Source: Candidatus Omnitrophota bacterium (GTDB taxonomy: Bacteria; Omnitrophota; Gorgyraeia; Zapsychrales; Fredricksoniimonadaceae). From it: a DNA stretch of 64,000 nucleotides. The stretch is taken from positions 440 through 64,439 of the forward strand of contig JABDCU010000007.1 of the NCBI GenBank assembly GCA_013287965.1. The letters run 5' to 3'. This document shows, in pieces, positions 1 through 33,234 of this stretch (positions within the stretch are counted from its first letter, which is position 1; each line of letters begins with the position of its first letter). The notes under the pieces are model-generated. The model was not told the DNA's origin. It saw nothing but the letters and a program-made list of their open reading frames with translations, and made no database searches. The position numbers and the translations under genes were made by a program.

Positions 1-3000
1 CTTAAACTTCGGACTGCTTTCTTCTAGAACTGAAGATTTTGGATCATATAATTCTAAAATACTCTTTTTGTTCAACGTTAACGAACTTCCTGCTTGTATA
101 TTCTTCGCATTCAACGGTTTACCTTCAATCCAAATAGTAAACTTTTCCAACATTTTACCACCATATTGCAGTTCTAAAAGAAATTCCCCAACACCAATTG
201 AGAACGCTTGACCATCATAAACCGGCATCGAAACGCTTTCATTATGTAATAGCGTCCCCTCCTTTTCCAAATCTTCTAAACTCATCATCGCCGCGTCTTT
301 CTTCTGTGGGATTGTCATGGCACTGTCCACATGCAAAGGATTTTCTGCTAAGATTTGGATCAGCGGTTTCAAATTCTCTGCCTGACGCTTAGTGTCCTCG
401 TCAAAAACCTGCAATGCCTCTTGGGCGTCATGCACTCGGGATTTACGCAACTCCGGATCACGCATCAGATCAACCAAGGATTGTTTCTGAAATAATCCGA
501 CCTTACCGGTTTTAATGAGACGCTCCTGCACCTCTCTGTTATTGCCCCAATGCCCTTCATCAAAGGTCAACACAGGAACTCCTTGCACAACAGCTTCAGG
601 CAGGTTGCGATCCTGGCCGACAACCGCCATGGTCGCAATACCATAAAATTTCGTAAGCTCCCCGCCTGTATTCAAAAAAAGAATATCTTTATCAGATAGA
701 TCAAGCGTCTCTCCCGATAGATTACGCTCTTGGACACGGCTATGATCGGTGATACGGTCATCTTTCTTCCAATCATAAAAGGTGCCTTTTCCCAGGCGAT
801 ACCTCATGGCGGCAACCAAAAGCGGGCGTTGAGAAGCAGGTACATCTTTATACAGATCATTAAAAACATCCAAAACACGATGGAATTCTGAGGTTTCCAG
901 CGATCCCAGAACAATGACCTGCCGTTCCCCAATACCAAGCTCTTTGCGCAACTGGCTGCGCTCTTCTGAAGAAATGACCACAGGACTGGATGTCTTAAAA
1001 GGATAATAGGGAATGTTTGTGTAAATATGCTCACCATCTAATTTGCTGCCAAGTTGAAAATCCGTAAAACGAAAAAGAATTAGATCATTATATTCCGCCT
1101 CCTCGCGATATGGTCCATGGTCGGTAAATTCCTTCATATCTGGCTTAGACATGTCTTCCTTAGTGATTTCTTTATGGTAAAGGACCCTAACATCATTTCC
1201 TGACAGGCCTAAACTCTTAACAAAGCCCCGGGCCGCATTAAGGGAAGCTCGCTCATAGACGATCAGCCCTATTTTTTTACCGGCTTCTTTTGTACCCAAA
1301 CCCGCGATCCCCCGCACATCATCCCATCGGCCCAGACGGGCTAAGCCCACGATTGCCAGAGTTCGCAAAGTCGATGCGGTGTTACTATGCGCAATGGAAG
1401 AAACCACTTCCTCCAACCCTGGATCCCATTGCGCATTCCCCCCCAAATCAGCATTAAATATCAGCAGCATAGAGAATATTTTTAACTTTTCTGAATACCT
1501 GTCAGACCTTAATATGGATTCAAATTTAGGAAGATTCTCTTTTCTGGAAAGTTGCGTTGTCGGGGTCAAATAAAAAAGCGACTTAAAAATCTCAGACATA
1601 AGACGCTCTTTAAGGACCATTGGTATATTCGGGTCCTGGATAAATTCAAAGAAATAATCGACCTTCTTAAGTTCGGATATGGTGGTCATTGATGAACGAT
1701 GTGCCCAGCTCTCATATTGGGACACATTCATCATCATTTTGGTGAATACTTCCTTGGCCGCCGCTATTTTTGATGTCTCTGGCACATCATTATTGTTGTA
1801 TATTTTTCTGAATGTCTCTAGAGCTTCTTTATACTCTTGTTCCGTGCTTGTCATCATCGCCGCATCGGGAAAATAAATTAAAGTAGTGCTGCCGTCCATA
1901 TATTCAATGACATGCAGCACGGAATTCTTTCGCGCCATGCCTTTAATTCCTGATGGAGTATGCTTATCATCCACCACCGTGCGAGGAATAGTGCCGGACG
2001 GATGGTACACAGTAAGGACCGTTTGTTGTGGATCGGGCCATTTCTCAAATTGATTATTGACTTCTCCTGCCCCTTGATACAACCGTGGAGGATCTTTGAC
2101 GGTAGCAATCTTTTTTACGAAGTCCAGCACTTGATCTGAAGTCAGGTTCATTGATTTTATACCGGAAATGACCTGATCTTGGATCACTCCTGCCACCGTC
2201 GTCATCGCCCAATTTAATTCTTCTTTTGCCCTCCTCTTCAATTCTTTACTCACCACTGATAGCGGCGGAAGCCCGCGCAGCTCTCTTTTAATCTCTGATA
2301 ATTCACCATTTAATTGCAATTTCTTGGCAGGGTTAATATTTAATATTGAATTTAAGGCTTCCACCTGTACAACAAATTTCATTAAAGATCGCTTGTCGCT
2401 CTTTGGGATAGCACGTAATGCATTTATATAATCCGTATACCCATAATACGTAAGAAGTCTCTCTATCTTATTTTTAACCCCGTCCTTCTTTTTAATCCCG
2501 CCAGATTTTTTAATGGTAACTAAATTTGCAGTCATAAGACCCTTGCCTTCTTCCGGGATTTCAGATTCAGGCCTCTCCAACACTACCATCGCCGCGTTTT
2601 TCTGAAATAAAATACGTCTTTTTTGCTCCATATTACTATCATCCACTTTACTCACCGCTTCATAGACAGGTTTTAGCTTTTCAAGCAAAGCTTTTCTCGC
2701 CTGCAGTGTTGAAACATCAAATCTAAACGTAGCACTGTGTGGCTTATTGACGATCTTCCATGAATCTCTGTATATAAATTTATTCAACATAAAACTTATT
2801 TTGCTCGTTATGCCACGATTATAAACCCCAACATCTTGGGCCCCCATTGCATCCAATCGTGCCTTTAAGCTGGGCATCAGCCTTGGGCCATATTTTTTTG
2901 TTTCCTGAACAAGTAAAGGAGAATCTAAAGAAATATATTTTATGTTATAGAATCTCTGGTCCTTATCCCAATTAACAAGTAAATTGTAAATGACCTTTAC

Positions 3001-4590
3001 CACATCTTCCATAATGAGCGGATATGCATTCCTCTGTTGACTTGCCAATCCCTTCAAATTTAAAATAATATGCATTCCTAAAGAATTATTTTTATCCCGA
3101 GTGACCACGGCATAACGGCCAACCTTTGTTTCACTAAAATTTCTGCTTATAAAATCAGATTCATAATTTAAATACATATAAGTAAAAATCAATGTAGCTA
3201 TAATATCTGCCTGCTTGGCGGCACTGTCCCCAATGACAAAACTCGACAAGACGGCCACAACTGTTGTAGATAAAAAAATTGCTGACGTACCAACCCCTGA
3301 AGCAACGGCACATGCCACCAATCTGGTTGGATAAGACTTTGCCCAGGCACGCATCTTCCACTTCAACGAGACAGTTTTGTTTTCTTGATTGTCATTAGTC
3401 ATCGCCGCGTTGACCGACCTGTTCGAAGATTCTAAATTCACCATAGCGCTATCCATATCACCGCTTATCATGGCATTGTTGATCTCTTGCGCTCCTTTAA
3501 AATCCTGGGGGCTATTGCGTAAAGCTATCTCACTTTTGATATCTTGCAAATTAGCTGACAAGTGTGATACATACCCGCCAGAAAAATACTTCCTGGGGAT
3601 TATTTCCTGCGTGATGGGGTCTTGCTCTTCCTTAATATAGTTGAACACGCCTTTCTTGAATGCCCTCAAGTATTGCTGATAGATCTTTCCATTCGCGCTC
3701 TCATCTTGCTGGTTAATGCCTTTGACCTTGGCTTGGTCCACATATATCTTGCCCAGCAAACTTGTCCTTAGCGCCTTCTTATACCAAGTTGCCAAGATCA
3801 GGGCCTCATTGATCTGGCGCAACTTGGCAAAATTCTTGCCTTCGTTGACTTCTTTTTCAAGAGCGGGTAAAACAATTTCACGAACGATATTAGCCCCTAT
3901 TAAGGCGGTTTCGTTACGGGTAGCCAAAGGCAACCCGGAGCTGTGCTTTTGCATCGACAAGTAATCCTGCTCCAGCATGACCTTCATCTTGCTGTGCACG
4001 ATCAGCACGGTATTCTCATGTTCGTAAACAGTGGCTTCACTGGGGATGATCCATACTTTATTAAATGTGTTGATAGGAATATTGGTGGTGCCGTATTTCT
4101 TGGCAGCTTGCTCATACACCCTCTTCCAAAACTTCCGGCCGAATTCATCTTCAGGATAGATCAAGGAAGCAGTGATTTGCTTGAGCATATAATCCTGGCC
4201 CAGCAGGTCACGGCCCATTTCCGTCATGGCAAAATCCGAAGGGATGATCCTCTGCTTTTCATAGGGGGAAAGATTCACCCACAGGTCTTTTTCGGGAATG
4301 GTCAAACAGGTCAGGAAATATTTAATGATCTTGTTATATTCCTCTTTCTTTTGCCCGACAGCTAATGGCAGGTCCCCTTTTTGGACAAGAAAGTCAAATT
4401 GCAAAGGATTTTCAGGATGGATGACAATACCCTTGAGAATAGGCGGCATGAATTCCGGACTTAAGGCCACACGGACACCAGGTTTGGGCAGGACCAAGGC
4501 CTCCTGGGCATGCAAAGGCGCTACCATCGTTGCCGTAAAGGCAGCGATAATTAAGGCATTTATATATGAACGGAACATGGGGTCCCTCAT
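1..4590 (-). CDS. Giant secreted multidomain protein, C-terminally truncated by the window edge (>1530 aa); paralogue of 28607..31390
   Basis: Not in the ORF track. I scanned every plus-strand triplet in this frame from 1 to 4683 and found no tta/cta/tca until the tca at 4684-4686, which is the in-frame upstream stop. The first ATG is at 4590. The N-terminus MRDPMFRSYINALIIAAFTATMVAPLHAQE looks like a signal peptide. The first ~340 aa are roughly 60% identical by eye to the 927-aa protein. A hydrophobic segment follows (LVACAVASGVGTSAIFLSTTVVAVL). A GT-B-like segment lies near 400..1000 (NLPEAVVQGVPVL). Confidence 0.85.
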   Translation of the reverse strand, partial: MRDPMFRSYINALIIAAFTATMVAPLHAQEALVLPKPGVRVALSPEFMPPILKGIVIHPENPLQFDFLVQKGDLPLAVGQKKEEYNKIIKYFLTCLTIPEKDLWVNLSPYEKQRIIPSDFAMTEMGRDLLGQDYMLKQITASLIYPEDEFGRKFWKRVYEQAAKKYGTTNIPINTFNKVWIIPSEATVYEHENTVLIVHSKMKVMLEQDYLSMQKHSSGLPLATRNETALIGANIVREIVLPALEKEVNEGKNFAKLRQINEALILATWYKKALRTSLLGKIYVDQAKVKGINQQDESANGKIYQQYLRAFKKGVFNYIKEEQDPITQEIIPRKYFSGGYVSHLSANLQDIKSEIALRNSPQDFKGAQEINNAMISGDMDSAMVNLESSNRSVNAAMTNDNQENKTVSLKWKMRAWAKSYPTRLVACAVASGVGTSAIFLSTTVVAVLSSFVIGDSAAKQADIIATLIFTYMYLNYESDFISRNFSETKVGRYAVVTRDKNNSLGMHIILNLKGLASQQRNAYPLIMEDVVKVIYNLLVNWDKDQRFYNIKYISLDSPLLVQETKKYGPRLMPSLKARLDAMGAQDVGVYNRGITSKISFMLNKFIYRDSWKIVNKPHSATFRFDVSTLQARKALLEKLKPVYEAVSKVDDSNMEQKRRILFQKNAAMVVLERPESEIPEEGKGLMTANLVTIKKSGGIKKKDGVKNKIERLLTYYGYTDYINALRAIPKSDKRSLMKFVVQVEALNSILNINPAKKLQLNGELSEIKRELRGLPPLSVVSKELKRRAKEELNWAMTTVAGVIQDQVISGIKSMNLTSDQVLDFVKKIATVKDPPRLYQGAGEVNNQFEKWPDPQQTVLTVYHPSGTIPRTVVDDKHTPSGIKGMARKNSVLHVIEYMDGSTTLIYFPDAAMMTSTEQEYKEALETFRKIYNNNDVPETSKIAAAKEVFTKMMMNVSQYESWAHRSSMTTISELKKVDYFFEFIQDPNIPMVLKERLMSEIFKSLFYLTPTTQLSRKENLPKFESILRSDRYSEKLKIFSMLLIFNADLGGNAQWDPGLEEVVSSIAHSNTASTLRTLAIVGLARLGRWDDVRGIAGLGTKEAGKKIGLIVYERASLNAARGFVKSLGLSGNDVRVLYHKEITKEDMSKPDMKEFTDHGPYREEAEYNDLILFRFTDFQLGSKLDGEHIYTNIPYYPFKTSSPVVISSEERSQLRKELGIGERQVIVLGSLETSEFHRVLDVFNDLYKDVPASQRPLLVAAMRYRLGKGTFYDWKKDDRITDHSRVQERNLSGETLDLSDKDILFLNTGGELTKFYGIATMAVVGQDRNLPEAVVQGVPVLTFDEGHWGNNREVQERLIKTGKVGLFQKQSLVDLMRDPELRKSRVHDAQEALQVFDEDTKRQAENLKPLIQILAENPLHVDSAMTIPQKKDAAMMSLEDLEKEGTLLHNESVSMPVYDGQAFSIGVGEFLLELQYGGKMLEKFTIWIEGKPLNAKNIQAGSSLTLNKKSILELYDPKSSVLEESSPKFK

Positions 4591-28606: not shown

Positions 28607-31390
28607 TTATGATGCAGTCAACTGTGCCAAGATAGGCGATGCGGAAGCCGGCCTGATCTCAAGGATCACCGGTACCAGCCCGTCAATGTGGATTTGGGCC
28701 AAGTCCTGCTGGCTCACTGGCAAGGGTACGCCGTTGCCATCACGCTTGATATGCAAGTCCAAATGCGCGGCATTCATGTCAATACCGCCCAAATGATCAA
28801 GTTTGTCCGCTGTTATACCATGTATCATCGCCGAACTGGACGTAGTGAAGGACATCAGGCCATCAAACATCTCATGCAAATTTTTCTGATATTCCTCTCT
28901 CAGCGGCTGGCCGACAACAGGCCTATACTGTAACAATTGATCTTCTTCCAGCTGTAAAAAAGCGCTCAACTCAAACCCATCACCGCTCAAAACAGCCTCG
29001 GTGCTCAGACCATCACCGGAATGCTGCGCTACCAGCGTAAGTGTGACCCCATTGGCGAATACGATCTTATGACTATGCTCATTAAATGAAGTCACTTCCA
29101 CGTCTCCCAGCAAGGCAGTGTAAAACTTGTGCATCGTCTCACGGATCCCAAAATGGCCATAAATCTCACGCAACAGGTCCTGATCATCTTTAATAAGCCC
29201 TTGACCAGGAACATATGAACTATTAAAGATCTTTGCCCCGAATACATAAAAATTAAATGCATGGCCCTGATAACTGATATTGACCCTTGTTCGAGTCGCC
29301 CAACCCGCGGATCCTATCTCCAATGAAAGCCCAACTCCATTGGTGAACCTTACCTCGACAGAATGTTCCGGCAATAACTTGCAATAGGAAACCTCGGGTT
29401 TTCCTAAAAAAACATTTTCAAATGCCAGCCTCGCATCTTCATGATGGACCGTCATCGCCTCATCGGGGGAAAATAATTTATTAATTCTTTGGTTTGTCTT
29501 ATACTCCTTAGTTGTCATTAAACCTTCAGGGCTGTGATGGTCCAGATCTTCATCCAAGAACTCAGTCGTGAATACCCATATGATCGCAGAATGCTCCGGC
29601 ACAGGCACTAATTTAAAGTTAATATGCCTGCCGGGACCCGCAAGCGGTCTTATGAAAACCACTTTTACAAGTTTGGATTTATAATATAATTTTTTCCCTT
29701 CATGAATCTCAAGTCCATTGCTAAAAACAAATTCTTTATCGCTCTTACCAATGACGATCTTTCCAATTTCTTCTAATTTGTGGACAACGTCATGGAGCTT
29801 TGTTCTCTGCCCCTCCGCCGAAATCGGGTTTATTGCTGCTATCGCTCCAGCACCGGCAATTCTTAAGAAATCCCTGCGCCCCATCTTGTTGTCATTCGCC
29901 TTCATCGCCGTATCGTGGCCGGTCCCCTGTTCCTGAAGCTCCTCTATGTCCCGCAAGATCTGTTCGATTTCTTTGAACTCTTTAGAATCAGATGGATATT
30001 TATATTTTTCCAACTGTTCATCCAATTTCACGAATATTTCTTTAAGGATAACCCTGTATTTTTCAGAAATGGGAACTGAAGGACTGGATTTTTGCCGAAT
30101 TTCAATTAACCTTTCCTTGGCTGAAGTAATTCTCTCCTGCGGTGACATCCTGACTGGCCTTATACCATAACCTTCCTTATACTGATCGGGAAGACCAGGG
30201 GGAATGATTCTTTTTCTTTTCACCCCCATCGCCGCGTCTTTGGGATCCATTGATACAGTGGCAAAGTCAAATTGCCTGCGCGTTCCCAAACTTACTACTG
30301 TTGCCATTGCTGCACTTCTATCTCCTTGAACATGCCTTGTTAAAGCCAAGCTTCCGTCAATTCCTAATAAAGAAGTCCCTCCCGAAAAATACTTCCTTGG
30401 GATCGTTTCATTAGTATATTTATCCACATCCTCTTTAATATAGTTAAACACGCCTTTTTTATAGGCTTTCAGGTATTGCCGATAAATGGCTTCGTTATTC
30501 TTGGGGTTTTGGTCAACGCCCTTGAGCTTGGCTTTATTAGCATAAATTCTAGCCAATAATGATTCCCTTAATGCGCGCTTATACCAGGCAGCAAGGATCA
30601 TCCCGCTAAAGACCTGCCGTAACGGAGCGAAATTCTTGTCTTCATTGACTTCTTTTTCTAATTGGGGAAGGACTACTTCGCGGACTACTTGGGAACCTAT
30701 TGCATGAGATTTGTCATGCTGTGAATGACGGCTTAAAGACAGATAATCTTCTTCCAGCATTACCTTCAAATGACTTTTATAGAGATAGGCGATATTGCCT
30801 TTTTCATAGATATCTGCTTCATCCGGCACGATCCATACCTTGTTAAAGGTATTGACCGGTATATTGATCGTCCCAAACTGCTTATAGGCGCGGCTGTAGA
30901 CTTCATCCCAAAATTTCTTGCCCAACTTGCCCTGCGGGTATATTAAAGAAGCAGTGATCTGTTTAAGCAGATAATCCTGGGCCAATAGATCACGGCCCAT
31001 TTCGGTTTTGCCGAAATCATCCTTAATAATGCGGTTCTTTTCATACGGGCTAAGATTGACCCATTGGTCTTCATCAGGGACTGCCAAAGAAGCCAAAAAA
31101 TATTTGATCAACTTTGTATACTCTTCTTTTTTCTGAACCTCTGTAAAACCTTTGTCACCCTTATAAACAATAAAATCAAACTTAAAAGCGTTCTCCGGAT
31201 GGATGACAATGCCTTTTAAAAGAGCCGGGGTAAACTCAGGACTTAAATGCACCATCACACCTGGCTTGGGCAGATTTACTTCCCCGCCTACTGGCGAGGC
31301 AAGCTGCGCCCAGCTCTGCGGTATCAAGCCATTGGCCAAAAAGGCAAACAAAACAAATACAGAGATTATTTTTCTCATTTTAGTCTTCAA
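28607..31390 (-). CDS. Secreted multidomain protein (927 aa), paralogue of 1..4590
   Basis: Signal peptide MKTKMRKIISVFVLFAFLANGLIPQSWAQ. It shares the ~340-aa N-terminal domain ending RKYFSGG. An internal RRDFLRIAGAGAIAA motif lies at aa 503-527. The C-terminal module is GGIDMNAAHLDLHIKRDGNGVPLP...GLVPVILEIRP. Confidence 0.8.
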   Translation of the reverse strand: MKTKMRKIISVFVLFAFLANGLIPQSWAQLASPVGGEVNLPKPGVMVHLSPEFTPALLKGIVIHPENAFKFDFIVYKGDKGFTEVQKKEEYTKLIKYFLASLAVPDEDQWVNLSPYEKNRIIKDDFGKTEMGRDLLAQDYLLKQITASLIYPQGKLGKKFWDEVYSRAYKQFGTINIPVNTFNKVWIVPDEADIYEKGNIAYLYKSHLKVMLEEDYLSLSRHSQHDKSHAIGSQVVREVVLPQLEKEVNEDKNFAPLRQVFSGMILAAWYKRALRESLLARIYANKAKLKGVDQNPKNNEAIYRQYLKAYKKGVFNYIKEDVDKYTNETIPRKYFSGGTSLLGIDGSLALTRHVQGDRSAAMATVVSLGTRRQFDFATVSMDPKDAAMGVKRKRIIPPGLPDQYKEGYGIRPVRMSPQERITSAKERLIEIRQKSSPSVPISEKYRVILKEIFVKLDEQLEKYKYPSDSKEFKEIEQILRDIEELQEQGTGHDTAMKANDNKMGRRDFLRIAGAGAIAAINPISAEGQRTKLHDVVHKLEEIGKIVIGKSDKEFVFSNGLEIHEGKKLYYKSKLVKVVFIRPLAGPGRHINFKLVPVPEHSAIIWVFTTEFLDEDLDHHSPEGLMTTKEYKTNQRINKLFSPDEAMTVHHEDARLAFENVFLGKPEVSYCKLLPEHSVEVRFTNGVGLSLEIGSAGWATRTRVNISYQGHAFNFYVFGAKIFNSSYVPGQGLIKDDQDLLREIYGHFGIRETMHKFYTALLGDVEVTSFNEHSHKIVFANGVTLTLVAQHSGDGLSTEAVLSGDGFELSAFLQLEEDQLLQYRPVVGQPLREEYQKNLHEMFDGLMSFTTSSSAMIHGITADKLDHLGGIDMNAAHLDLHIKRDGNGVPLPVSQQDLAQIHIDGLVPVILEIRPASASPILAQLTAS

Positions 31391-31467: not shown

Positions 31468-33234
31468 TTAGCCAGACGGATGGATCAAGACTTGGTATAA
31501 AGAAAAGGCCTCATTCTGGTACATTTTCTTTAAAGCAGGGCTGTCTGCCTGGGGCTCATAATATTTCATAAAAACGACATAATCCACTTTATATTTCATG
31601 ATAGCCACGTACACCGCCTGGTTTACCGGATGATAGGCCAGCATCACAAAATCCTTCATGTCCTGCATGCGTTTTTGCCATTCAACAACAGCCCCATAAT
31701 CAAAACCAACGATCCCGCAATCACGCTGGCACACCAGCACCTTGCGTTCGCTGTTGATCCTAAAGCCCCCAAAGGCGATGTCAATGGGCGTCAGGACCAT
31801 CGCGTCTTTAGGGGTGTGGTCTCGCACATACTCCTGCATATTGATCCAGTTGCGCAGCAGCTGCCAGGGCCCGTCGCCGTAATTCCTTGCCTGAAGATAA
31901 TTATAATGAAAAATACAAAATGAAATGAAGGCCGCTAAAAGCGGGATGACAATGAGGGCTTTCCTTAAATAAATATCCAGTTTTGGCCATCGTTTAAAAT
32001 TAAGAATAATAAATACAAGCACCATGGCGATCAATGGAAAGATGTTCTTCTGGACCTTAACGGGAAAACTGGACCAATTCCCAAACCCTATAAAAAGAAA
32101 GGTCATGGCCGCTATCAACGCCTGCCAGGGCTTGGCTTCTTTGACGGTTTTAAAGGCCCAAAAAGTCGTATAGCTCATTAAAAAAAGACGGATGAACTGC
32201 TCATTGCGTATCAGGTTTAGGTCTATGACAAACCGGCTGGGAATAGCGTAGGTAAAAATAGTGGAAAAAATGACCAGCGTAAAAGCCGTCCCTACCAGCA
32301 CATTTGTTTTCTTGTCCTGCCTAAGGGGAGGATAAATAAAATAAAGAAAGGCATACAAAAACCCAAGAAAAACATAGGGTTCAATGCTCCCCCAGAAAGC
32401 CGCCTTGTCAGCCCAAGCCTGCTCTAAAGGCGTGCCGCCAAATAAAAAATTCTGCGGGCAGGACGCCAAATATAGCGGCAGCCATTCACTGATGGGCACT
32501 GAGGCACCTATTAATTTATCGTGCAAAGACCTGGGGACCTGCCAAAATAAAAAAGGCAAAGACCCTAATATAAAAATGAGATTGGCCTTAAAGATCATCT
32601 CCCATCGCCGGGCATGATAAAAGAACAGGAACACCAGCATGTAAAACAAGCCGAATAAACTATAAATACCGTCGATATTGGCGGCCAGTCCGAATATAAG
32701 GGCCGCTAACATAAACCGCTCTTTATAGAATAAATAGATACCGGCAAACATCAGGCATTGGCCGACGGTCTCATGGGAAAAGGTGCACCACAGCAGTTCT
32801 TCCGTACGGCCCAGGACCATGAACATAATGATCGCGCACCCGACCGTGAACCTGTCCGGCTCAAGCAATCGCCAGAGCTTATACAGTAATAAAAAGATCA
32901 AATAACGGAAAACCAGAAACAAAACAAAATAGGCGGTCGGCACCTGTGCGACCGTGATGAATTTGGCGAGAATAGGATACAGGTAGGAAGAGAAATTATT
33001 CACCAAACTATCGACGTAATAGTCCCCTTTATACAAAGAAGGATCAATGAGGCGTTTAAGCAACGGGATCTCTAGGTGCTGATTGTCCCAGCCGTAAATA
33101 TAGCTGTTGCAACAAAGGTAGGCGGCAAGTAAAAGGAAGGCGGCAAAAAAATCGTTGGCAAGAAGATGCTTAAGACGCCGCTTAAATGGGTCTGTCATGA
33201 TATTTATTTCTGACATCGAAACACATGATAACAC
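31468..33234 (-). CDS. Polytopic membrane protein with a soluble C-terminal domain (possible GT-C-type glycosyltransferase)
   Basis: More than 10 hydrophobic segments by eye. No catalytic motif recognised with confidence. Confidence 0.5.
   Translation of the reverse strand: MLSCVSMSEINIMTDPFKRRLKHLLANDFFAAFLLLAAYLCCNSYIYGWDNQHLEIPLLKRLIDPSLYKGDYYVDSLVNNFSSYLYPILAKFITVAQVPTAYFVLFLVFRYLIFLLLYKLWRLLEPDRFTVGCAIIMFMVLGRTEELLWCTFSHETVGQCLMFAGIYLFYKERFMLAALIFGLAANIDGIYSLFGLFYMLVFLFFYHARRWEMIFKANLIFILGSLPFLFWQVPRSLHDKLIGASVPISEWLPLYLASCPQNFLFGGTPLEQAWADKAAFWGSIEPYVFLGFLYAFLYFIYPPLRQDKKTNVLVGTAFTLVIFSTIFTYAIPSRFVIDLNLIRNEQFIRLFLMSYTTFWAFKTVKEAKPWQALIAAMTFLFIGFGNWSSFPVKVQKNIFPLIAMVLVFIILNFKRWPKLDIYLRKALIVIPLLAAFISFCIFHYNYLQARNYGDGPWQLLRNWINMQEYVRDHTPKDAMVLTPIDIAFGGFRINSERKVLVCQRDCGIVGFDYGAVVEWQKRMQDMKDFVMLAYHPVNQAVYVAIMKYKVDYVVFMKYYEPQADSPALKKMYQNEAFSLYQVLIHPSG

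Follow-up and report, generated by a model that had tools for sequence, protein, structure and literature searches.

An export-leader-like twin-arginine segment at an internal module junction of a Sec-targeted Omnitrophota protein

The DNA analysed here, referred to as the window, is a stretch of 64,000 nucleotides, and all features described below lie on its minus strand. The gene at 28607..31390 encodes a protein of 927 aa that belongs to a modular Omnitrophota protein family; from an alternative start (ATG at 31378) the product would have 923 aa and is identical to the database protein P0001. A Sec-type signal peptide was predicted from hydropathy and the family consensus at aa 1–28 (31307..31390), with ...IISVFVLFAFLANGLIPQSWA followed by Q at the cleavage site. 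An N-terminal Sec-type signal had been claimed from the letters alone, and MKTKMRKIISVFVLFAFLANGLIPQSWA before this Q is indeed Sec-like, with a value of 1.83 in a Kyte-Doolittle window of 19 aa and a family consensus that ends in AYA before Q. The signal is followed by the conserved family head domain (aa ~29–360, 30311..31306), which carries many of the residues invariant in the family (QWVNLSPYE and GxTxMGRDLLxxDYxLK), and directly C-terminal of it by a junction-like S-A-A-M (aa 359–362, 30305..30316).

The remainder of the protein is divided by a short recurring motif, an example of a peptide spanning such a junction being GTGHDTAMKANDNK. The first junction, D-A-A-M (aa 385–388, 30227..30238, codons GAC GCG GCG ATG), opens a module of about 105 aa (aa 388–492, 29915..30229) that is helical or coiled-coil by prediction and without homologues. 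The second, D-T-A-M (aa 493–496, 29903..29914), lies 7 residues before the Met of a Tat-like leader; a polar n-region, KANDNK (aa 497–502, 29885..29902), extends from the junction Met to Met503, and the leader itself, MGRRDFLRIAGAGAIAAINPISAEG, occupies aa 503–527 (29810..29884). Behind the leader, the body of its module (aa 528–642, 29465..29809) was modelled, at low confidence, as beta-rich and had no homologues. It ends at a third junction, D-E-A-M (aa 643–646, 29453..29464), and the last variable module (aa 646–851, 28838..29455) was predicted, with low confidence, to form two units of a 4-strand sheet plus a helix. A degenerate junction, S-S-A-M (aa 852–855, 28826..28837), precedes by 13 aa the conserved C-terminal tail of the family (aa 868–927, 28610..28789; GGIDMNAAHLDLHIKRDGNGVPLPVSQQDLAQIHIDGLVPVILEIRPA...), which matches the family pattern GGIDxN...IKRDGxGVPLP...P. 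A second family member, truncated by the window edge, is located at 1..4590.

Examination of the central region confirmed that a twin-arginine-type, export-leader-like segment sits in the middle of the protein, at the head of a gene-like module. The leader named in the sequence-only reading was found at 29884..29810, preceded by ...GHDTAMKANDNK, which spans the DTAM junction region, and the length of 425 aa given there for a product from Met503 was correct. The leader begins at residue 503 of 927, in frame and with no stop upstream, and is thus not at the N-terminus of the precursor. Within it, the RR pair is at 29873..29878 and the h-region at about 29828..29866, followed by a candidate SPase site between ISA and EG. 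Compared with the Tat consensus [ST]-R-R-x-F-L-K, the core G-R-R-D-F-L-R matches in RR, F, L and the final basic residue and has G for S/T. Profile matches were sub-threshold, with 19.9 bits for PF10518 (cut-off 22.7; E 7e-4 with a 41-aa piece) and 12.9 bits for TIGR01409 (cut-off 16.7); with the full 927-aa protein as the query, the sole weak profile match was PF10399 (E 0.19). The h-region is weakly hydrophobic, with Kyte-Doolittle values of 1.83 in a 13-aa window and 1.09 in a 19-aa window. Since a TM helix usually reaches about 1.6 in the latter, the score is too low for the segment to be read as an ordinary TM helix or anchor. A small-x-small c-region (ISA before EG) is present, and R and K occur within 8 residues past the h-region (...SAEGQRTKLH). 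Composition-preserving shuffling of the 927-aa protein produced RRxF[LIVM] with a run of 12 uncharged hydrophobic residues behind it in 41 of 100,000 shuffles.

The segment thus resembles the Tat signal peptides described by PF10518 and TIGR01409 in its polar n-region, its weak Ala/Gly-rich h-region of about 13 aa, its ISA before E and its trailing basic residues. It differs from them in its position at residue 503, behind an N-terminal Sec signal, and in scoring below both cut-offs. A crude pattern search for TatA gave no match in the window and 80 loci (about 1 Mb of Omnitrophota DNA), and a literature search returned no description of Tat in Omnitrophota.

The family is large, with more than 4,300 proteins (4,352 matches), and among these matches its hosts are Omnitrophota MAGs only, with many paralogues per genome. 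Its members are about 600–2,400 aa in length and share one plan, namely a Sec signal, a highly conserved head of about 330 aa, variable modules, and a 'GGIDxN' tail of about 60 aa. The head domain was modelled by AF2 with pLDDT mostly of 70–90 and matched nothing in Pfam, in NCBIfam, among PDB sequences or by Foldseek. Searches of head, tail and module against Pfam, NCBIfam and PDB sequences returned only the weak Tat-signal matches and low-complexity noise, and neither head nor tail contained a recognisable protease domain. Recognisable modules elsewhere in the family include CheY, ACP, methyltransferase, PP2C, LMW-PTP, cNMP-binding and DnaJ domains. Across 80 loci no neighbouring gene was conserved, including any dedicated protease or transporter. 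No description of the family or of its junction motif was found in the literature, and the family is apparently undescribed so far.

The junction motif, [DN]-x-A-M, was counted 229 times, compared with 6.3 ± 2.3 in shuffles. A linker common to the whole phylum was ruled out by the non-family ORFs of the same loci, which were not enriched (41 vs 32). Junctions flank the head, each module and the tail, as exemplified by the 927-aa protein with its DAAM, DTAM and DEAM and its degenerate SAAM and SSAM. Where a module contains a Pfam domain, its limits agree with the motif: in P0098 an ACP-like domain (1372–1439) is flanked by Mets 1362 and 1448, and in P0076 a CheY-like domain (504–593) follows Met 494. 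Both the beginnings and the ends of similarity between members coincide with junctions; among variable regions, 65% of HSP starts were located 10 aa or less from a junction, vs 20% for random positions. At the level of sequence, the modules thus behave as exchangeable units delimited by the junctions. After [DN]xA, M was enriched 12.5-fold and Q 2.3-fold, and GTG and TTG codons were unenriched; the nucleotide context is GC-rich (GCG GCG ATG), with Ala codons biased to GCG. The possibility that the junction is a translated Shine-Dalgarno or start context was rejected, as there is no upstream nucleotide signal, the needed G is absent, and Q replaces M. Alternatively, the residues [DN]xA[MQ] could have a structural role, as a helix cap or linker, and not be a cleavage site.

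Leaders were found to concentrate at these junctions. Among 201 family proteins, about 13 good Tat-like internal segments were present, 9–10 of them located 3–14 aa past the Met of xAM; such positions make up about 6% of the sequence, and the chance expectation is below 1. Strict RRxF[LIVM] cases numbered 4 in the 201 proteins, with about 0.08 expected. More generally, leader-like heads followed 9.0% of junction Mets vs 3.8% of other Mets (p 2e-6). The heads following junctions were Tat-like, Sec-like with AxA, lipobox-bearing or TM-like, and occurred in a minority of modules. Taken together, the post-junction hydrophobic segments showed no clear positive-inside bias (K+R of 1.73 before and 1.80 after the segment; net charge, p = 0.06). 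Their median uncharged length was 19 aa, and many of them may therefore be simple membrane anchors of an intact chain. Homologous modules agreed in the presence or absence of a leader in 41 of 43 pairs, 4 of which have leaders at 30–52% identity. In one example, P0120 (aa 436–855) and L045 (aa 1098–1517) carry junction-bounded modules that are 50% identical and both keep RR and the h-region, with the leader diverged by indels. One relative of the P0120 module, P0121, has no leader ahead of this domain. When stand-alone, Tat-exported relatives of the P0120/L045 module were sought, the sole match was a 547-aa fragment with the domain, leaderless, after a GH116 region.

The module of the 927-aa protein itself could not be placed in this manner. 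An exhaustive phmmer search with the 372-aa module against 1.84 billion representative proteins gave 0 matches, and no significant similarity was detected by BLAST to any of about 200 family members or to the window paralogue. A word-index search with the module also gave none, a weak negative as this search missed the parent protein as well. For aa 528–867, no Pfam or NCBIfam domain, homologue or confident fold was obtained, and a cofactor-binding domain was not detected; for the last variable module, Foldseek returned only weak and not significant similarities, to sheets of the PUR/Whirly and lipocalin type (E ≥ 0.07). Split-gene orthologues, on which the sequence-only reading had relied as a check, were not found among the 1.84 billion representatives, because the module has no detectable homologue. 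The idea of a fusion of two ancestral genes stood in part: a self-contained, gene-like unit is joined to an exported upstream part, but the separate genes were not found. The unit is considered gene-like on the grounds that a [DN]xAM junction precedes it and that junction-bounded modules in the family correspond to whole single-domain proteins.

Several explanations are possible for a leader in this position. The one we tentatively prefer, although we hold it at somewhat below an even chance, is that the leader-headed module would become functional only on release by cleavage at or near the junction. The RR follows about 470 residues that would be exported by the N-terminal Sec signal. Because these residues would leave the cytoplasm, the RR of an intact chain could not meet the Tat receptor, and because it would then be outside, the leader would direct export or insertion only once the module had been separated. 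The likeliest route would be proteolysis at or near the junction, in a polyprotein-like maturation, after which a C-terminal piece of about 430 aa would carry the leader at its N-terminus.

A rather unlikely alternative is that the segment is an inert vestige, the module having been taken from a captured Tat-exported pre-protein; the chain would be Sec-exported unfolded and the segment would form part of a linker. This would agree with the conservation of both the head domain and the Sec signal before it throughout the family, with an h-region too weak for stop-transfer, with the sub-threshold Tat profile scores, with the leaderless relative in P0121, and with the domain searches and the neighbours at the 80 loci, in which no cleavage machinery was identified. 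A decaying relic would nevertheless not be expected to look like this: the variable modules evolve fast, as indicated by the 0 relatives among 1.84 billion proteins, yet RRDFLR is near consensus, leaders are concentrated at module heads, and homologous modules keep their leaders at the low identities given above.

It is improbable that the segment associates with or anchors an intact protein in the membrane, making it polytopic or tethered, for example through a dual Sec-Tat hand-over such as that of the actinobacterial Rieske protein. Dual Sec-Tat membrane proteins include the S. coelicolor Rieske protein Sco2149, Sco3746 and polyferredoxin families (PMC3471235, PMC5449189); in these an internal RR precedes a weakly hydrophobic last TMD, which is followed by positive charges (PMC5449189), and an even number of TMDs upstream keeps the RR cytoplasmic (PMC5449189; PMC3471235). 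The 927-aa protein is similar in having an internal RR downstream of a Sec-handled sequence, a segment of low hydrophobicity, and then R and K as in those proteins (PMC5449189), and many post-junction stretches of the family are of TM length, including one after NAAM in the paralogue. It is different in that the only hydrophobic segment upstream of the RR is the N-terminal signal, probably cleaved, instead of an even number of TMDs, so that the RR would be periplasmic. In addition, the 19-aa hydrophobicity of 1.09 is insufficient for a stable TM helix, and the cofactor-binding C-terminal domain of the dual Sec-Tat proteins has no detected counterpart downstream.

Internal initiation on the same mRNA, which would give a separate Tat substrate of 425–432 aa from the ATG at 29884 or the junction ATG at 29905, appears very improbable. 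Both ATGs are in frame, the 12 nt upstream of 29884 are A-rich (aatgacaacaag) like those of many true starts in the window, and with an SD in only about a third of the genes here its absence is weak evidence. The check for a ribosome-binding site nevertheless disfavoured a start at the junction Met: across the family, junction Mets have no SD-like or A/U-rich signal upstream and lie in the GC-rich context with GCG-biased Ala codons, and Q stands for M in some junctions. The enrichment of M and Q, with none of GTG and TTG, agrees with a motif of the peptide and not with a start codon, and a second Met after the junction Met is missing in most other Tat-like heads. A chance likeness, an Arg pair beside an Ala/Gly-rich stretch with no meaning, would fit the scores beneath the Pfam and TIGRFAM cut-offs and the few cases expected among more than 4,300 members (4e-4 per protein), but it can hardly be correct given the shuffling result, the excess of strict cases and the position of most Tat-like segments directly past a junction Met.

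Extended from the single release at D-T-A-M to the whole family, the preferred explanation becomes more speculative. The sequences hint that separately targeted pieces may be cut from family proteins. A polyprotein would have defined cleavage sites between gene-like units, a cognate protease and mature products; gene-like units are present, as is a motif that is a candidate for the site, but no protease domain was recognised and no neighbouring gene was conserved among the 80 loci. It is conceivable, though we consider it doubtful and a little less likely than the inert vestige, that these are bacterial polyproteins cut between [DN]xA and M, each module being placed by its own head either in the producer or in a prey or host. 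The heads would then be Tat-like, Sec-like, lipoprotein-like or TM, or would be missing from modules of cytoplasmic type (CheY, ACP, methyltransferase). A bacterial prey or host would be the destination if head and tail constitute a delivery device of these presumed predatory or parasitic nanobacteria, and the leaders would then hijack the Sec and Tat systems of that prey or host.

In polymorphic modular proteins such as CdiA and Rhs, a short motif (VENN and DPxGL, respectively) marks the module boundary. The present family is similar to these in its conserved delivery-type N-terminal region, the peptide motif at the boundary, where the nucleotides too are mildly biased, the hypervariable and exchangeable modules towards the C-terminus, and the number of paralogues in each genome, which is high. 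It is different in having several modules per protein and a conserved C-terminal tail instead of a single toxin, and in that the recognisable modules are of ordinary housekeeping type (CheY, ACP, methyltransferase, PP2C) and not toxins; no sequence similarity was observed, and no adjacent immunity-like gene of the CdiA-CT/Rhs type was conserved among 80 loci. For the giant multi-enzyme ORFs of Omnitrophota, post-translational cleavage has been raised, with the cleavage points stated to be unknown (bioRxiv 10.1101/2023.11.21.568195; 10.64898/2026.06.07.730766). They occur in the same phylum, and in them, as in the present family, unrelated gene-like domains and signal or TM segments tile one ORF; family members differ in being mid-sized and in sharing a conserved head, a conserved tail and a defined junction motif. 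Junctions of this kind might also supply the cleavage points of the giant ORFs.

Topologically, complete export leaders inside a Sec-targeted chain are senseless unless that chain is dismantled, and this paradox is systematic, recurring at the junction motif in a family of thousands of proteins that neither Pfam nor NCBIfam models cover. Should the junction be a processing site, it would provide a concrete and testable rule for splitting multi-module Omnitrophota ORFs into their real products, represent a rare polyprotein gene organisation in bacteria, and reveal a large, shuffling cargo repertoire in an uncultivated and probably host-dependent lineage. If the leaders are inert or are anchors, the gain would still be the definition of a major protein family, so far uncharacterised, and of a motif at module boundaries that is useful for annotation.

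The paralogue at 1..4590 shares 51% identity with the 927-aa protein, confined to the head domain. An analogous arrangement had been claimed for it, and this was partly upheld: a NAAM junction (3400..3411) is followed by TNDNQENK and then a long TM-like stretch (about 3220..3333), but RR is absent, the site is about 100 residues earlier, and the module is dissimilar. The Tat motif is therefore not conserved between the two proteins; what they have in common is a junction followed by a leader-like head.

The window protein is encoded by an ORF of 927 aa on the minus strand (28607..31390). It carries a Sec-type N-terminal signal, MKTKMRKIISVFVLFAFLANGLIPQSWA-cut-Q, and an internal Tat-like segment, MGRRDFLRIAGAGAIAAINPISAEG, at residues 503-527 (nt 29884..29810, minus strand), directly preceded by ...EELQEQGTGHDTAMKANDNK. 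Translation, the Kyte-Doolittle profile of the N-terminus (1.83, 19-aa window) and a family consensus ending AYA-cut-Q bore out the description and coordinates of both in the sequence-only reading. A 41-aa excerpt of the Tat-like segment scored 19.9 bits against PF10518 and 12.9 bits against TIGR01409, below the curated cut-offs of 22.7 and 16.7, respectively; with the whole protein, the sole match among Tat models was PF10399 (Rieske Tat signal; E 0.19). Because its h-region is short and weak (Kyte-Doolittle 1.83 in a 13-aa and 1.09 in a 19-aa window), the segment is signal-like, not an ordinary TM helix. In sequence terms it matches a Tat signal peptide, from which it differs in two features, the N-terminal position and the curated score.

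Searches with residues 496-867 found no homologue by phmmer against 1.84 billion representatives or by BLAST against about 200 family members. A word-index search also gave 0 matches, which is weak evidence: queried with internal segments, it failed to recover the parents P0001 (the database copy of the window protein, identical with a start four codons later) and P0120 (another member), so that its negatives for internal modules are unreliable and the exhaustive phmmer search is the stronger negative. This leaves neither a split-gene orthologue nor any orthologue in which the RR could be compared; lack of the RR in homologues and missing split genes, named earlier as refutations, apply trivially, for want of any homologue.

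Database search with the whole protein returned 4,352 relatives, similar to the query over its first ~36-43% alone and ranging from ~620 to 1,580 aa; the few named ones are labelled Candidatus Omnitrophica or Omnitrophota. In 120 of them, from which the architecture was read, the order was fixed: signal peptide, ~330-aa head, hypervariable middle and ~60-aa tail. The head is strongly conserved, with dozens of invariant residues (e.g. QWVNLSPYE, GxTxMGRDLLxxDYxLK), and the tail follows the pattern GGIDxNxANLxLQIKRDGxGVPLPxxQQD...P. A variant tail, GIDLTPADRILQSQNSGIGIKFHINAAQLARYQEAPGF... / GIDFNSRNMKMNIQKGDKGISMNFDSAMIARIKTEGF..., was seen in loci L005, 75..4590 (+), and L020, 107..2501 (+), suggesting at least two tail subtypes. 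One 976-aa ORF (L060, 7395..10323, +) has four junction motifs and a GGID tail with the head apparently missing, and may be a head-less variant or a start-calling artefact. Head, tail and middle had no Pfam, NCBIfam or PDB-sequence matches; in an AlphaFold2 model of the window protein, fair confidence was limited to the head (pLDDT ~70-90), and a Foldseek search gave no credible structural neighbour. Species-representative genomes contain 343 family loci, 80 of which were retrieved, several from the same MAG; nearly all are labelled Omnitrophota, some MAGs being mislabelled Planctomycetales. No conserved neighbour of family genes was found in the 80 loci. Directly upstream of the window gene lies an ORF for a putative 588-aa polytopic membrane protein (31468..33234, minus strand), which is not a conserved neighbour in the other loci.

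The middle regions are punctuated by a motif, [DN]-x-A-M, most commonly DAAM followed by T, A or S. It occurred 229 times in the 120 proteins against 6.3 +/- 2.3 in shuffles, and non-family ORFs from the family loci showed no enrichment (41 vs 32). It usually sits directly C-terminal of the head and between modules; about half of the proteins have it no more than 20 aa from the tail. The window protein carries SAAM at 359-362, DAAM at 385-388 (nt 30227..30238), DTAM at 493-496, DEAM at 643-646 and SSAM at 852-855. After [DN]xA, M is 12.5-fold and Q 2.3-fold enriched, and V and L, GTG and TTG included, are not; D-x-A-Q is a minor variant, e.g. ...DQAQ..., or DKAQ directly before GGID tails. Since Asp codons at the motif are used at background frequency, M and Q are enriched without GTG or TTG, and no upstream nucleotide signal was found family-wide, the junction is selected mainly as peptide. 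Its Ala codons show a synonymous bias to GCG (0.38 and 0.60 vs 0.21 family-wide), for which a recombination junction, a signal in the RNA or common descent may be responsible. In the 64-kb window, GCGGCGATG (usually GAY/AAC GCG GCG ATG) occurs once on the plus strand and five times on the minus strand (30227..30238, 3400..3411, 2587..2598, 1855..1866 and 286..297), all five within the two family genes.

The junction is a module boundary marker, as judged from three kinds of evidence. Pfam domains of other members occupy junction-bounded units of whole-protein size: an ACP-like domain of P0098 (1372-1439) is flanked by Mets 1362 and 1448, and a CheY-like receiver of P0076 starts 10 aa past Met 494. 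BLAST HSPs between variable regions of different members start within 10 aa of a junction in 65% of cases, compared with 20% for random positions. The same ~420-aa module lies at different positions in P0120 (aa 436-855) and the L045 family ORF (aa 1098-1517), with junctions on both sides in each. The earlier proposal of a gene fusion thus holds in spirit, for junction-delimited modules, and fails as to a split orthologue.

A loose screen (RR plus hydrophobic stretch) of 201 non-identical family proteins gave 21 candidates, about 13 resembling real Tat leaders, and 9-10 of these ~13 sit 3-14 residues past an xAM Met, positions making up ~6% of variable sequence. Examples are DAAM-LH-RRAFLGTSL, DAAM-MS-RREAVGLLAGGAG, DAAM-AS-RRTAIASLAAS, DGAM-VS-RRDLLVTAAVA and NAAM-NAEGAKTHPT-RRAVLTGTAAA; in the window protein Met503 lies 7 residues past junction Met496. 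Leader-like heads, defined by a basic residue and 11 or more uncharged hydrophobic residues, followed 9.0% of junction Mets vs 3.8% of other Mets (p 2e-6). Some are textbook Sec signals with an AxA site, others are lipobox-like, e.g. DAAM-MTFKKISAIFALALACGAGGC. Module types pass their leaders on by descent: leader presence was concordant in 41 of 43 homologous module pairs (<85% identity), and in four of the pairs, 30-52% identical, both partners bear a leader. The modules of P0120 and L045 are 50% identical and have Tat-like heads, in which RR and h-region persist despite divergence of the leader itself, with indels. P0121, a 547-aa metagenomic fragment, has this module without a leader; there it lies C-terminal of a GH116 (PF04685) region, a hint that the domain is carbohydrate-active and extracytoplasmic. 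In a screen of all ORF N-termini across the window and the 80 loci (~1.08 Mb of Omnitrophota DNA), the only convincing Tat-like heads lay inside family proteins; a crude pattern for TatA had no match.

The Tat-like segment of the window protein therefore forms a leader-like head on an exchangeable module that is gene-like and delimited by junctions. In an intact chain, the ~470 residues preceding the RR would be sent outside the cytoplasm by the N-terminal Sec signal; as a Kyte-Doolittle scan found no hydrophobic segment between the two, the RR would be out of reach of a cytoplasmic Tat receptor in cis. The simplest reconciliation with leader retention, which we put forward tentatively, would be polyprotein-like processing, in which a break at or close to the junction separates the modules and leaves the leader N-terminal. 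An inert vestige of gene capture is rather unlikely, since leaders are retained although modules evolve fast, which argues for function. We doubt that the segment acts in cis as a membrane anchor or in a Sec-Tat hand-over: many other post-junction segments of the family are of TM length, as an anchor would be, but in known dual Sec-Tat proteins, whose internal Tat motif resembles ours, the TMDs before the motif must be even in number and a cofactor domain is required (PMC5449189, PMC3471235), neither of which holds for the window protein. Across post-junction hydrophobic segments of the family, no clear positive-inside bias was seen. Internal translation initiation, suggested previously, is improbable, above all at junction Mets, where no nucleotide signal precedes and Q is enriched and GTG and TTG are not; the ATG at 29884 does have an A-rich upstream region resembling true starts of this genome, and lack of an SD is weak evidence against any start here because only ~1/3 of window gene starts have an SD-like sequence, most having A/T-rich upstream regions. 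Chance resemblance is scarcely credible, as RRxF[LIVM] with 12 uncharged hydrophobic residues after it turned up in only 41 of 100,000 shuffled versions of the protein.

Of greater interest than one motif is the family-wide pattern: in a very large and uncharacterised family of Omnitrophota, modules begin at a conserved junction, often with their own predicted export leaders. It is a variation on known things, Tat leaders and modular polymorphic proteins, and a new mechanism is not yet demonstrated. Polymorphic modular proteins bear demarcating motifs, VENN in CdiA and DPxGL in Rhs; the family resembles them in this, and unlike them its proteins string together several modules of housekeeping type, end in a conserved tail and have no immunity-like gene next to their own. 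Giant Omnitrophota ORFs are tiled with TM segments and numerous enzyme domains unrelated to one another, and proteolytic maturation has been proposed for them, with cleavage points stated as unknown (10.1101/2023.11.21.568195; 10.64898/2026.06.07.730766). Neither the head/tail family nor the junction motif appears in these two preprints, and no published description of either was found in the literature.

The second family member in the window (1..4590, minus strand) exceeds 1,530 aa and is truncated at the window edge. Its head is 51% identical to that of the first, and beyond the head the two are unrelated; it carries no conserved Tat motif, although the arrangement had earlier been read as conserved. 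Near aa 1210-1390 it has a weak Kdo-transferase-type glycosyltransferase match (NCBIfam E 0.002, far under cut-off), and its head is followed by a TM-like stretch.
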